Notes: generated by a model not told the origin, from the letters alone. A stretch of DNA of 64,000 bases from an uncultured Acidobacteriota bacterium (GCA_963702425.1 CAVPCQ010000037.1:32001-96000), one strand, 5' to 3'; counted from the first letter of the stretch, positions 46,090-56,157 are shown. Program-made: numbers and translations.

Positions 46090-49000
46090 TTACCGCAGCG
46101 GGGCCCCCGGCCCGGTGGCCAGCGGAAGGAGGATCGTGAAGCGCGCTCCCGCGCCCGGGCGGCTCTCGACCTCGATCCGCCCCGCCTGGGCCTCGACCGC
46201 CTGGCGCGCGATCGGGAGGCCCAGCCCGGATCCCGTGTCGCGCGTCGTGACGTCGGGTTCGAAGAGCTGGGACAGCCGGCCGGGGTCGATTCCGGGCCCG
46301 GTGTCCGCCACGCTGATCGCCAGCGTGCGCGGCGGCCCCTCGCGAACCGCCCACCCGACGGTGACCGTCCCGCCCGCCTCGACCGCGGCCAGGGCGTTGA
46401 GGACGAGATTGGCCAGCGCGCGGCGCAGCAGCCGCGGGTCGGCGAGAGCCGGCGGCAGGGCCGGAGGTCCCGTGGTTTCGAACCGCACTCCGGCCGGCGG
46501 GGCCAGCCGGTACGGGGCGAGCCATTCGGTGAGCAACGGGGCGAGGTCGAGCCGCTCGGGCCGCGCGGCGAACAGGCGTGCGTAGTCCGAGAACTCGCTC
46601 GAGGTCTCGCGCAGCACCCGCACCTGCTCACCGATCGTGGCCAGCGCGCGGTCGAGCACCTCGGGCAGACGCGGGTCGTCCTCGGCCGCGAGCCGGCGCA
46701 CGTGCTCGACGACGAGGCTGATCGGCGTCAGCGGGTTCTTGATCTCGTGCGCGATCCGGCGCGCCATCTCGGCCCAGGCCACGAGCCGCTCGCCGCGCAC
46801 CGTGTCCGACAGGTCCTCGACGACCACCAGCCGGGCCGGCTCGTCGTCGGTCTCGCGCGGCAGGCGGATCGTCGAGACGCGCAGGTGGCGCGTCTCGGCG
46901 TCGCGCGGCAGATCGACCATCAGGGGGGGCGTCGCATCGTCCGGCAGCGGCAGGTCCGGCGCCGCCTCGAGCAGCGCCCGCGCTTCCGGGTTGGCGGCCC
47001 AGATCGAGCCGTCTTCGCGCAGCGCGAGCACCGCCAGCGGCATGCTCGCGATCAGCCGCTCCATCGCCTCGCGCCGGCGCTCGAGACCGTCGCGCTGCGT
47101 GGCCAGGCTCGCCCCCATCGCGCGGAAGGCGCGGGCCAGCGAACGCGTCTCGTCGTAGCCCGTCTCCGGCACCGCCGTGTCGAAGGCGCCGTCGGCGATC
47201 CGTGCGGTGGCGCGCTCGAGGTCGGCCAGTGGCCGGACCAGCTTGCGCGTCGCGGGCGCGACCACCACCGCGGCGAGCAGCACGAGCAGCGCCGAGCTGA
47301 ACAGCAGCGCGCGATCGACGTCGCGCAGCTCGTCGGCCACGCGCTGCCCGGCCCGTCCGAGCGAGACGCTGACGACGCCGGTCGCCGCGCTCGGCGCGAC
47401 GAGCGGGCCGTGCGCGACCGCAGACGAAACGACGCGCCCCCCGGGTGCCCGGCGGGCCGGCTCCTCGACCAGCGACGCTCGCCCTTCGACGATCCGGCGC
47501 CACGTCGCGCCGTCGAGGCGGTCGGGGAGCAGCCCGGCGCGGACGAGGTCGGGGCGGCTCGAGGCGACCAGCGCCCCGTCGCCTTCCCAGGCGCAGACGT
47601 CGTCGTCGAGCGTCCGCGCCAGCCAGGCCGCCAGCGCGTCGTCGAGGCGCATCCCGCGCTCCCCCTCGAGCGCCAGGTAGTCCTGCAGGAAGCCGCGGGC
47701 GTAACCGACCGCGCGCGCCCCCTCGGTCGCGAGCTGCTGCGCCGCCTGGCGCGCCGCGAGCACGCGCAGCGAGACGCCGAGCGCCAGCAGCGGCACGAGG
47801 CCGGCAGCGAGCAGCAGCAGCGCGACCTGCACGCGGAATCGCCCCAGCACCCGCTGCAGTCCCTGCTCCAGCGCGGCGCCGCTCCCGCGCGGATCGGTGA
47901 CGACACGGCGCAGCGCCGCGGCGCCCAGCCCCAGCGCGACGAGCAGCGCGCCCCAGGCGACCGCCATCGCGGCGACCGCGACCGGGCGCGGCGGGAAGAC
48001 GATCACCGAGACGGTGCCGCCTCGATCGGGCAGGTCGAGGATCCGCGCCCGGCGCCCCTGGACCGGCACGGAGCGCCAGGTCGGCTCGTCGGGCGCCGCA
48101 GCGGGAGGGGGCGGGGCCGGCTCGACGTCGGAGTGAACGACGCGACGCGCGGCGTCGTACCACGCCAGCCGCGGCTCGAGGTCGGAGGCAGGCGGGTAGA
48201 GCCCGCCGTGCCGATCCGCGCCGCGGCGCGCGCGCAGCGGGTCGGTGGCCGCGAACCCGGGGAGGTTCCCCGGCGCCTCGAGGACGGCCGCGATCCAGCG
48301 GCCGCCCAGGGGCCGCGCGCGCTGCGCCAGCCGGACCCGGAAGGTCCCGCCGACGAAGGAAAGCGCGACCTGCGCCGGCCGCTCGGCCCCCGCGGCGTCG
48401 CGTCCGAGCGCGTCGAGCTGCGGAGCCGGATCGACCGGCGGGAAGCCGGTCGCGAAGGCGTCGTCGAGGTGTCCGTCCGCGTCGTACTTCCAGACCCCCG
48501 AGGCGAGTCCCTGCCGCCCGAGCGGGCTGTTCCACCAGAGGTCGATCGCGTCGCGTTCCGGCGAGAGCGAGGCCGGCCCCGGGTCGGGGCGCGTCAGGGC
48601 GAGCGTCTCCTCGAGCGCGGTGTCCCAGGCGTGATCGCGCGACGCGATCGCCGGCTCGACGCTGCCGTCGACGGCACGGACCTGGGCGCGCGGGACGGCG
48701 AGCCCGTGCGCGAGCGCCGCCAGCGCGCCCGCGCCGACGGCAGCGAGCGCGACCGTCACCCCGCCGGCGCTTCGCTCCAGCCGCGGCGCTCCCAGGCGGG
48801 CCGCCAGGACGAACGCCGCCCACACCGGGGAGGCCAGCGCCAGCGTGAGGGCGACGCGCACGCCGGTCCCGCCGCGCGGCCCGACGAGTTCCAGCAGCGA
48901 GAGACGCTCGCCGACGGTGACGGCGCCGGCGAGCGCGAGCCCGAGCGCGGCCGCGGCGAGCGCCGCGATCCCCAGCGCGCGCCGCGCGCGCGTCCCCCCC

Positions 49001-50139
49001 GGCAGCGGCGTCAGCGCCGCCACGGCGGCGAGCGCGAGGCCGGTGAGTGCCGCGCCGGCCGGCGTGTCGACCAGCGGGGCGAGCGACGCCGAATGCGCGC
49101 CCCGTCCCTTCCGCGAGCCAGCTCGCGGTCCCGATGCCGCCGACCCGCTCGAGCGCGCCCGGGGCCGCGGCCAGCGCGAGGCGCGCGGCGATCACCGCCA
49201 GCGCCGCGCCGCGCCGCACGGCCAGCGCGAAGAGGGCCAGCACAAGCGCCGCCAGCGCGGCCGCGAGCTGCGCGCGGCGGTCGGCCAGCCGGGCTCGTTC
49301 CAGCGGCGCGGGCAGCACCTCGAGCGAGACGCGCGCGACGACCTGTCCCCCCGAGGCCATCAGCGGCACGAGCGACCAGTAGGGCGCGCTCTCGGCCGCC
49401 GGGCGCGTGGGCGCCACGGGAGCGCGCACCCCCTCGCCCCAGGCCTGCCAGCGCACGCTGGCATCGACACCGGGGCCGAGGTCACCGCCGAGCGCGCCGG
49501 CCGCCGGCTCGGAGGGGAGCGGCACCTCCGCCAGCAGCACGTGCGGTGCGCGCGCGGTGCGGCGCGCGACCACGAGCCGCAACACGAGGCCGCGCCGGAG
49601 CGCGATCACCGCCGGCGGCGTCGCGAGCTGGGCGCGGAGCGCCTCGCGCTCGTCCGGCGCGAGCCGCATGCTCGAACCGGACCAGGCGACGATCGTCGCC
49701 AGGTCCGGGCCGAAGAGGACGAGTCCCGCGTCGGGACCGAGCGCGGAGCGCTCGGCGTCGAGCCAGCCGGCGATCTCGGCGTCGAGGGGGCGGCTCCCTC
49801 CGCAGGGTGGCGTCGACCGCCGAGACCAGCGCCGCCCAGTTGCGCTCGACCCCCTGCACCGCGATGGCGAGGCGCTCGTAGGGAGCGCGACGGGGGGCGA
49901 TCTCCGACTGTCCGGCGAGGCCGGCGACCACGGCGAGCAGCGCGGCGAGGCGCAGCGCTCGGCCGCGTCCCCGGACCGCGGCGAGCGCCGCGGCGGCGAG
50001 CGCGACCGAGGCCAGCCACCAGCGCCCCGACCGCAGCCCCCGGCGCGCGGGAGAGCGCGGCCAGGAGGGCGGTCGACGCCAACGCCAGCGGGAGTCCGTC
50101 GAGGACGGCGAACGGGGCCGCGCGGCGCAGGTCGTTCAT
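46090..50139 (-). CDS. Large multi-TM NtrY-like sensor histidine kinase (HAMP-PAS-like-HisKA-HATPase); about three apparent frameshifts in the 5' part
   Basis: AWAEMARRIAHEIKNPLTP, NLVLNA, DTGPGI, GSGLGL; coding frame switches near 50040, 49790 and 49105. Confidence 0.8.
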
Positions 50140-50206
50140 CGCGAGCGGATGATAGTGCGCGGCGCGTCCAGGGAGCTTCCCGTCCCGCGCCTCCTCCTCC
50201 CAACGC

Positions 50207-50236
50207 GGAACGGCCCGCCGCGAGGCGGGCCGTTCC
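50207..50236. terminator. 13-bp hairpin, probable 3' end of the sRNA
   Basis: GGAACGGCCCGCC-GCGA-GGCGGGCCGTTCC; only a weak U-tract. Confidence 0.55.
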
Positions 50237-50435
50237 GGGAACTCAAGGGGGGGTGGTCAGTCGGTCGGGAAAGGAGTCGTCTCGTCCAGGCGATGGGAAA
50301 TCCCGACAAGGGGCCGAGGGTTGGGTTCCACTTGCTCGGGGCAAAGTGGGCAACGGGCTTGGCACTGCGTCGGGTTCTTAGGGCAACGGGGTCGGTTCCC
50401 CTCGAACCCCCTGTCGGGTCTTTCCGCCTTCGCGC
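50207..50435 (-). ncRNA. Putative sigma-54-dependent structured sRNA (~230 nt)
   Basis: -24/-12 promoter upstream; 19-bp stem with G-U pairs only on the minus strand; no credible ORF; terminal hairpin. Confidence 0.6.
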
Positions 50436-50445
50436 TCTAGACTTA

Positions 50446-50462
50446 TGCAACGGGGATGCCAA
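50446..50462 (-). promoter_or_regulatory. Sigma-54 promoter
   Basis: TTGGCATCCCCGTTGCA, GG-N10-GC. Confidence 0.75.
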
Positions 50463-50568
50463 GACCGTCCGAATGCCGTAAACCACTAGAGAGGCGTGAC
50501 TTGCCGCGAAACGCGGCATCGAGCCCTGCGACCCGGGGGGAGCGACGGGTGATGCATCGAGCCCGGTC

Positions 50569-50585
50569 TGTTGCGTCCTGCAACG
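50569..50585. promoter_or_regulatory. Putative enhancer (UAS) for a sigma-54 activator
   Basis: TGTTGC-GTCCT-GCAACG about 140 nt upstream of the predicted +1; recurs at 55848. Confidence 0.6.
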
Positions 50586-50597
50586 CGCGCGGCCCGG

Positions 50598-55827
<5,230 letters not shown>

Positions 55828-55939: not shown

Positions 55940-55966
55940 AAAAAAATAGGCCCTCCGAGGAGGGCC
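55940..55966 (-). terminator. Intrinsic terminator
   Basis: Minus strand GGCCCTC-CTCG-GAGGGCC-TA-TTTTTTT. Confidence 0.85.
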
Positions 55967-55994
55967 GAACTGGTAGAGGAAAAGGAGTCAGTGA
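55940..55994 (-). ncRNA. Putative ~55-nt sigma-54-dependent sRNA with C/U-rich seed
   Basis: Promoter, then TCACTGACTCCTTTTCCTCTACCAGTTC, then terminator; no ORF. Confidence 0.6.
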
Positions 55995-56004
55995 CAGTTA
56001 CATA

Positions 56005-56020
56005 AGCAATCGCCGTGCCA
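56005..56020 (-). promoter_or_regulatory. Sigma-54 promoter
   Basis: TGGCACGGCGATTGCT, full match to TGGCACG-N4-TTGCW. Confidence 0.82.
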
Positions 56021-56157
56021 CGTCGGGCAAAAAGGGAAGTCGAGACGGCCCAAGGGGTTGCCGTTCGGAGTGCTTCGGAATGTGGCGGGGAGGTTCTGCC
56101 AGCGTGACGCGGCGGGTCAGTCTGACGGGGCGGGCCTGACGTTCAACGGCAGCGGGG

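Follow-up and report, generated by a model that had tools for sequence, protein, structure and literature searches.

A conserved small RNA with a sigma-54 type promoter, flanked by activator and sensor kinase genes in one acidobacterial family, probably targets cell-surface protein mRNAs by base pairing

What is encoded between the gene for a GAF/sigma-54 activator and that for a sensor kinase in an uncultured Acidobacteriota bacterium? The question concerns a stretch of 64,000 nucleotides (nt) from GCA_963702425.1 CAVPCQ010000037.1:32001-96000, hereafter the window, belonging to the 5.1-Mb genome G000, in which a first-pass annotation had proposed a structured, strand-specific RNA of about 230 nt. 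The proposed features were confirmed, and this RNA, here called sRNA1, is predicted to be an independent small RNA (sRNA) gene, structured and strand-specific, with a promoter and a terminator of its own. It probably acts in trans as a base-pairing sRNA, driven by sigma-54 and targeting the mRNAs of cell-surface proteins, and its strongest functional signal is one that the annotation lacked, namely an invariant 5′ end complementary to a conserved mRNA site. The promoter, the enhancer site, the structure, the conservation, the distribution and the complementarity were all established in silico; from them we infer the expression of sRNA1, the direction of the regulation and the identity of the protein that binds the enhancer site. 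The interval first assigned to the RNA, 50207-50462, does contain it, although that range also takes in the promoter, the predicted start lying near 50435.

All sequence features listed in the annotation are present on the minus strand, and the predicted stem of 19 base pairs (bp), with one bulge and two G-U pairs, is exactly the helix found in the RNAfold minimum-free-energy structure, where it is composed of 13 bp, a 1-nt bulge and 6 bp (P1). The fold of a 281-nt stretch was more stable than that of all 200 dinucleotide shuffles (z = -3.55). The stem also passed the check by covariation, for which 19 and then 22 distinct copies were aligned and a covariance model was built on a 140-position core. 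In the model-based alignment of the 22 distinct homologues, 96.7% of the 330 cells of the 15 modelled P1 pairs held standard pairs, eight of the 15 pairs showed double-sided changes (41 cells), and the covariation score was reached by none of 500 shuffles; sliding the 3′ partner by 1-3 columns lowered the pairing to 41-64%. Covariation of the terminator stem was supported by RNAalifold.

P1 encloses a C-rich multiloop with GAACCGAC, GAACCCGAC, GAACCCAAC, two copies of CCCGUUGCCC and a CCACUUUGC/GCAAGUGG hairpin (P3). According to the alignments, this hairpin is present in most homologues, with the compensatory variants GGGUC/GACCC, GAGUC/GACUC and GGGCC/GGCCC, and is missing from loci L006, L013, L015 and L049. 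Among the loop motifs, M2 is nearly invariant across the 22 sequences (invariant letters AG, CC and AGCCC) and is the most open part by prediction, with a mean unpaired probability of 0.63. A long-range pairing inside the loop between CGUUGC of motif M1 and GCAGCG was rejected for want of covariation, since 72.8% of the cells pair and no pair shows double-sided changes. P1 and the invariant multiloop are proposed to form a structural or partner-binding domain. The length of the core varies from 118 to 147 nt among homologues through indels that are not multiples of three, which argues against a protein-coding function.

The distribution of sRNA1 is confined to one lineage. By BLAST, the sRNA1 stretch was detected in 20 of the family's 22 other genomes, and none of the 18 genomes that represented 12 further families of the class yielded it. 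When 119 genomes of the class were searched with the covariance model, 21 of the 23 from the order, itself a single family, each gave a single strong match (75-137 bits), and no match from the 96 genomes of 18 other families was credible. Two scores outside the family were treated as chance: the match in G030:C11 (33.3 bits) falls within coding sequence, and a weak one in G016:C62 (30.6 bits) corresponds to a short GC hairpin behind a gene. The two genomes of the order without a match are G002, whose copy is probably unassembled because its contig ends inside the neighbouring activator gene, and G014, which is 99% complete. Within the RNA, the 5′ seed GCGAAGGCGGAAAG is invariant in all 22 sequences except for a single A-to-G change in L009, and three GAACC(C)RAC words occur in the window's genus only. 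A pattern scan of public genome contigs gave 54 loci, 17 of them true sRNA1 copies, all from metagenome-assembled genomes (MAGs) titled Acidobacteria or Acidobacteriota, and a metagenome scan yielded four true copies among seven matching loci.

The remaining pattern loci were mostly a multi-copy palindromic repeat of other acidobacterial MAGs, or chance matches in other phyla. This repeat, which resembles repetitive extragenic palindromes, was seen in other acidobacterial and Vicinamibacterales MAGs (loci L022, L029, L030, L034, L038, L039, L043, L044, L057-L059, L061, L064, L067, L069-L072 and L075). Its right arm, GCGAAGGCGGAAGGACCCGGCCTAC, agrees with the sRNA1 5′ end in 19 of 21 letters, by chance or by kinship, and the arm word GGACCCGGCCTAC has just two copies in the window's own genome. 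A different repeat follows the sRNA1 terminator directly at locus L013 of G012 (~1760-1850), where three direct copies of GGGGACAGGCGACTTAGG are succeeded by inverted copies.

Transcription of sRNA1 would be driven by a sigma-54 type promoter, whose GG-N10-GC elements were found in all 22 distinct loci. In 21 of these the -12 GC sits 13 nt before the invariant block GCGAAGGCGGAAAG, and on this spacing the start near 50435 was predicted. The genome encodes rpoN (Sigma54_DBD, 206 bits, at G000:C6) and holds 14 strict TGGCAY-N5-TTGCW sites. A genome-wide scan for sigma-54 promoters uncovered a sibling, sRNA2, of about 60 nt, located just past two tRNA genes and composed of a single-stranded CUCCUUUUCCUCUACC and an intrinsic terminator with a U7 run. 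It was identified in 20 of 22 relatives, always across the activator gene from sRNA1 where the contig allows, and promoter, seed and terminator are common to 22 instances in 21 loci, with tandem copies in some genomes. Its best Rfam match, mmgR/suhB, scored 19.1 bits against a gathering score of 41, and membership of a known family was discarded.

Additionally, a palindrome of the type GTTGCR-N3-YGCAAC lies at position -134 to -162 of the sRNA1 loci, exact in 17 of the 22 distinct ones and with one mismatch in the other five, and the 5.1-Mb genome holds only two such palindromes. The second is found between sRNA2 and the activator start, as it is by eye in 18 of the 22 sRNA2 instances. Because this copy overlaps the activator gene's own promoter, the sequence arrangement suggests that the adjacent activator binds the palindrome, autoregulates its gene and activates sRNA1. 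The elements upstream of the sRNA2 promoters are of another type (for example in the window at ~56060-56130, minus strand), being by eye inverted repeats GTGAC-N8-GTCAC followed by TGGCA; since they differ from the sRNA1 palindrome, sRNA2 may answer to another activator.

At the 3′ end, most genera have a U-run behind the terminator-like GC hairpin. Expression was weakly hinted at by a single 166-nt metatranscriptome contig (run X17), which covers 50266-50426 and nothing else of the 1.1 kb compared. Runs X16, X18 and X19 are labelled RNA-Seq and probably contain DNA, and their contigs were left unused as evidence.

What, then, could the invariant 5′ end recognize? Perfect 15-mer complements to it occur at only two places in the 5.1 Mb, the sRNA1 gene itself and G000:C37:148431, where the match extends to 17 nt with a predicted duplex energy of -40.3 kcal/mol. 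This second site corresponds to codons 6-11 of an FG-GAP/TSP_3 gene (G000:C37:148411-150825), beyond the window, about 2 kb downstream of a lipoprotein gene cluster on the same contig, and encoding a protein with a signal peptide, five FG-GAP repeats and a thrombospondin type 3 repeat. The conserved arrangement comprises a Shine-Dalgarno sequence GGAGG, the ATG, 12 nt, GTGAGGNNN and then GG(G/T)CTTTCCGCCTTCGC. By pattern search and inspection of the context it was found in 14 of the 21 sRNA1-bearing genomes, with two copies in G010, and its 14-nt core is perfect in 13 of these 14. Leu is encoded within the site by CTT, a codon with a share of 2.0% among the Leu codons of 576 confident open reading frames (ORFs); the retention of such a rare codon indicates conservation at the nucleotide level.

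Other candidate sites for the 5′ seed were discarded: a 16/17 match in G017 is internal to truB, those in G005, G006, G018 and G010:C161, with one or two mismatches, fall in unrelated ORFs, and scans that allowed G-U pairs match any purine run. A run of more than 60 G at G000:C21 ~160070-160105 is probably an assembly artefact.

A second complementarity resides in the 3′ tail. The anti-Shine-Dalgarno motif that the annotation had placed there was recovered as CUCCUUU in 14 of the 22 sRNA1 tails, with the full 10-mer CUCCUUUUCC in 8 of 22, and the same CUCCUUUUCC forms the core of sRNA2. Not counting the sRNA2 gene, the genome holds eight occurrences of the perfect complement of this core, GGAAAAGGAG. 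Six are at Shine-Dalgarno positions of gene starts, and three of these starts (G000:C37:142775, 143633 and 144801) belong to tandem lipoprotein paralogues. The cluster, at G000:C37:142775-146433, consists of four such tandem paralogues of about 270 residues with a lipobox, to which Pfam assigned no family; the lipoprotein family was detected in 22 of the 23 genomes of the order, with 2-10 matches each. In relatives, the perfect 10-mer was present at 21 of 47 distinct paralogue starts and a match of at least 8 nt at 26, and the bases flanking the core vary by genus in step with sRNA2 (GACUCC-GGAGUC, GAAUGGCUCC-GGAGCCAUUC).

This correspondence was quantified as the longest Watson-Crick match to lipoprotein start regions, taken only within retrieved loci and with one tail partial. 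For sRNA2, the median was 13 nt in the same genome, against means of 10.5 in other genera and 5.28 in shuffles. For the sRNA1 tail, the median was 10 nt in the same genome (n = 21), against means of 8.0 in other genera and 5.55 in shuffles, and 0.2% of 420 shuffled tails reached 10 nt. Beyond the sRNA gene itself, the window's own tail motif has one perfect 12-mer match, at G000:C17:133845, which runs antisense to an ORF and was set aside. As for co-occurrence, G014 is devoid of sRNA1, sRNA2, the lipoprotein family and an activator orthologue, a single case that fits the four being one functional module.

In the mechanism that we consider probable, the product of the gene just upstream, an enhancer-binding protein bound at the palindrome about 150 nt before the RNA, would turn on the sigma-54 promoter, and transcription would end at the GC-rich hairpin, before the separately promoted kinase gene. 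The single-stranded 5′ end GCGAAGGCGGAAAG would act as a first seed on codons 6-11 of the mRNA for the secreted FG-GAP/thrombospondin-repeat protein. The tail CUCCUUU(UCC) would act as a second seed, common to sRNA2, on the Shine-Dalgarno regions of the tandem lipoprotein mRNAs. Activation would thereby lower the translation or the stability of cell-surface protein mRNAs; repression, and the route to it, are suggested by the positions of the target sites. At the FG-GAP mRNA, the mode of action may be either decay or translation.

Several observations weigh against this mechanism. The FG-GAP site was not found in 7 of the 21 sRNA1-bearing genomes: the orthologous N-termini have diverged in G008, G017 and G005, and no site was found in G006, G018, G020 and G022. 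Since the 5′ block is invariant even where the site is diverged or missing, further targets or functions must exist. With its position at about +19 to +32, the site lies past the stretch in which pairing classically prevents ribosomes from binding. The 5′ block is not especially open by prediction, with a mean unpaired probability of 0.37 as compared with 0.39 for the whole RNA, and it may pair partly with the pyrimidine tail. The tail motif itself is missing or different in 8 of 22 sequences, and sRNA1 tails match lipoprotein starts of the same genome barely better than those of other genera (8.48 versus 8.0), so that the tail signal is mostly the shared anti-Shine-Dalgarno core. Moreover, the window's genus lacks the U-run after the terminator hairpin, and the X17 contig is of low depth, represents a relative 90-95% alike and comes from assembled contigs in which ends and strand are not readable.

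The C-rich loop, the most conserved internal element, is also left without an assigned function by the base-pairing mechanism, and it is this loop that gives room to another explanation, in which sRNA1 would be a protein sponge or scaffold whose single-stranded motifs CCCGUUGC, GCGCCCAGCCCGAUGCC and CCC runs titrate or recruit an RNA-binding protein. The near invariance and openness of M2 across the 22 sequences would suit such a role, as would the finding that complements of M2 are not enriched over a reversed-pattern control in 23 genomes; the energies from RNAduplex for the entire loop with the target cluster were strong, which is meaningless in GC-rich sequence. A precedent also exists in CrcZ of Pseudomonas, a sigma-54-dependent RNA gene directly after the activator gene cbrB. 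CrcZ, however, is a protein sponge with many A-rich motifs, whereas sRNA1 has complementarity to mRNAs and few C-rich motifs; its two or three motif copies are far below the number in known sponges, no candidate protein was found, and the specific complementarity of both RNA ends to mRNAs would be needless in a pure sponge. We therefore regard this explanation as rather unlikely, with the reservation that it could coexist with base pairing, which would then be secondary. It is similarly doubtful, albeit conceivable, that sRNA1 is a sensor sRNA in which the invariant C-rich multiloop binds a protein or a small ligand that gates both terminal seeds.

The annotation had also left room for the region being only the 5′ leader of the downstream histidine kinase mRNA; the GC hairpin would then be a conditional terminator in a cis-acting attenuator. 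The RNA does lie on the same strand, ending about 65 nt before the kinase gene in a conserved order, and read-through is conceivable because the window's genus has no U-run after the hairpin. Nevertheless, a U-run does follow the hairpin in most genera, the tail between stem and terminator is long, variable and without a conserved alternative pairing, and the 5′ end matches a distant gene. In addition, 15 of 19 loci (13 by pattern, and L006 and L011 with GATAAT) have a -10-like box 5-10 nt ahead of the kinase start codon and no Shine-Dalgarno sequence. These features point to a separate kinase transcript, probably leaderless and with its own promoter, and a mere leader appears improbable. Least credible is a 6S-like promoter mimic, which the annotation had offered as an alternative to the sponge; such an RNA would sequester the RNA polymerase holoenzyme. 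The long closing helix round a large loop does recall 6S RNA, and the resemblance of the loop word CCCGTTGC to the RNA's own -12 region holds within the window's genus, but it is lost in other genera because the promoter spacer differs there. The 6S covariance model gave no match at E up to 10 in 49000-52000, a canonical 6S RNA (RF00013) scoring 48.7 bits, above the cut-off, is encoded elsewhere in the genome at G000:C6:49121-49252, and the long unpaired 5′ and 3′ extensions of sRNA1 are unlike 6S, so that this identity was abandoned. The base-pairing sRNA is accordingly retained as the probable reading, and the coordinates of the locus are collected in Table 1.

Table 1. Features of the sRNA1 locus, with positions counted from the first nucleotide of the window.
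Feature	Position	Strand	Basis or remark
Kinase start region: -10-like TATCAT, 9 nt, then ATG	50128..50154	minus	no Shine-Dalgarno sequence
sRNA1, predicted transcript of ~230 nt	50203..50435	minus	start from promoter geometry, end from terminator hairpin
Terminator-like GC hairpin GGAACGGCCCGCC-UCGC-GGCGGGCCGUUCC	50236-50207	minus	covarying stem
Tail motif GACUCCUUUCCC, anti-Shine-Dalgarno	50267..50278	minus	motif common to sRNA1 tails and sRNA2
Closing stem P1, 3′ arm CCCUCGGCCCCUUGUCGGG	50320-50302	minus	RNAfold, covariation
Variable hairpin P3 CCACUUUGC/GCAAGUGG	50328..50349	minus	read from alignments
C-rich loop motif M2 GCAGUGCCAAGCCCGUUGCCC (GCAGCGCCCAGCCCGAUGCC in most relatives)	50348..50368	minus	alignments
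C-rich loop motif M1 CCCCGUUGCCC (CCCGUUGC in most relatives)	50381..50391	minus	alignments
Closing stem P1, 5′ arm CCCGACAGGGGGUUCGAGGG	50418-50399	minus	RNAfold, covariation
Invariant 5′ seed GCGAAGGCGGAAAG	50420..50433	minus	alignment; complementary to FG-GAP gene site
Sigma-54 type promoter TGGCAT-N5-TTGCAT, TGGCATCCCCGTTGCAT	50461-50445	minus	-24 GG and -12 GC, 10-nt spacing
Extra half-site GATGCATCAC (TGCAAC in most relatives)	50549..50558	minus	~19 nt past the palindrome's right half
Upstream activator site, palindrome GTTGCAGGACGCAAC	50584-50570	minus	~150 nt upstream of the RNA 5′ end
Activator gene, C-terminal frame: GAF, Sigma54_activat, AAA_lid_14, HTH_8	50598..54386	minus	domain search
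Activator gene, N-terminal frame: Pkinase, AAA_16, TPR_12	52642..55827	minus	overlaps C-terminal frame
Second palindrome copy GTTGCGCCCTGCAAC	55863-55849	minus	overlaps -35/-10-like promoter TTGCGC ... CATAAC before activator ATG 55827
sRNA2	55940..56020	minus	sigma-54 promoter 56020-56005; seed CUCCUUUUCCUCUACC 55987-55972; terminator 55966-55940

Regarding the flanking genes, their order is kept among the loci, with the activator upstream and the kinase downstream on the same strand as sRNA1. The activator gene adjoining sRNA1 encodes a Sigma54_activat domain scoring 228.7 bits, and no receiver domain was present among the domains of its C-terminal frame; the C-terminal 333 residues are 74-95% identical in relatives, where the gene lies upstream on the same strand in most loci. 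In G008 and G009 one ORF encodes the entire activator, about 1750 residues long, with Pkinase, AAA_16, TPR, GAF, sigma-54 ATPase and helix-turn-helix (HTH) regions. In the window and in G004 (L217), a second MAG of the same genus, the gene is divided between two overlapping frames, and its split into a kinase-STAND-TPR protein and a GAF-AAA-HTH protein may be genuine in that genus. The sensor kinase gene (HAMP, HisKA and HATPase_c), which starts at 50139 on the minus strand, extends over 46090-50139 in three frame segments, with shifts at ~49900-50035 and near 49023-49030. The L028 and G004 homologues each read in a single frame, and the breaks represent either assembly indels or a pseudogene.

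How does this locus relate to systems already described? At the gathering threshold, Rfam 15 recovered two tRNAs only from the whole window, and at E up to 10 sRNA1 matched only sX13 and a CRISPR repeat, both below threshold. The sX13 match (RF02232, 16.2 bits against a gathering score of 50, E = 6.3) involves the tail and terminator only, and sRNA1 was not considered a member. sRNA1 represents a new family of a known kind, a conserved sRNA of predicted sigma-54 dependence without a matching Rfam 15 family; no sigma-54-dependent sRNA of Acidobacteriota was found in the full-text literature, a search that had supplementary files outside its range.

The closest known arrangement is that of Pxr with PxrR and PxrK in Myxococcus xanthus, in which the sRNA gene directly follows the NtrC-like pxrR, has a predicted sigma-54 promoter and an enhancer region, and shares its locus with the histidine kinase gene pxrK (PMC5684412). 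Both systems have an sRNA after an NtrC-like activator, a sigma-54 promoter and a kinase gene in the locus, and in both the RNA has several stems and is limited to one bacterial lineage. On the other hand, sRNA1 has no sequence or Rfam relation to Pxr and is about twice as long; its activator carries GAF and Pkinase/AAA_16/TPR domains instead of a receiver domain, its kinase gene is downstream of the RNA, and a second sRNA flanks the activator gene. In Vibrio, the Qrr RNAs are small base-pairing RNAs driven by sigma-54 and an NtrC-family activator, LuxO (PMC11407668). As predicted siblings of this type with a common seed, sRNA1 and sRNA2 resemble the Qrr RNAs. The Qrr RNAs differ in their length of about 100 nt, in having no large closed multiloop, in an activator, LuxO, that is a phosphorylated receiver-domain protein, and in belonging to an unrelated phylum with unrelated targets and sequences. 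LuxO recognizes a palindrome of the TTGCA-N3-TGCAA type, and it binds and autorepresses its own promoter; the type of palindrome and the binding to the activator's own promoter are points of likeness to what is predicted for the activator here. Compared with both Pxr and Qrr, sRNA1 is larger, carries two terminal seeds round a closed multiloop and has an unusual activator.

C-rich motifs link sRNA1 to yet other sRNAs. In sX13 of Xanthomonas and RsaE/RoxS of Firmicutes, unpaired C-rich motifs serve as pyrimidine seeds against G-rich ribosome-binding regions, and sRNA1 also has C-rich motifs and a pyrimidine seed. It differs from them in that its C-rich motifs are in a multiloop rather than in hairpin loops, and in that its best-supported seed is purine-rich and located at the 5′ end. 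With 6S RNA (RF00013) it shares a long helix round a large loop and fails the model search.

Regulatory RNAs of Acidobacteriota are almost undescribed, and the locus provides, from sequence, a complete testable circuit, with a sensor-rich activator and its DNA site, two flanking sigma-54 sRNAs and precise conserved target sites in a cell-surface gene cluster. Should the doubtful sensor reading be true, the circuit made up of sRNA1, sRNA2 and the 1750-residue kinase-STAND-TPR-GAF-sigma54 activator would be lineage-specific and would switch a block of surface lipoproteins together with an integrin-like FG-GAP/thrombospondin adhesin, thereby controlling surface or social behaviour in uncultured Acidobacteria. 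The locus is usable for the first sRNA genetics in this group, and the covariance model for the annotation of MAGs.

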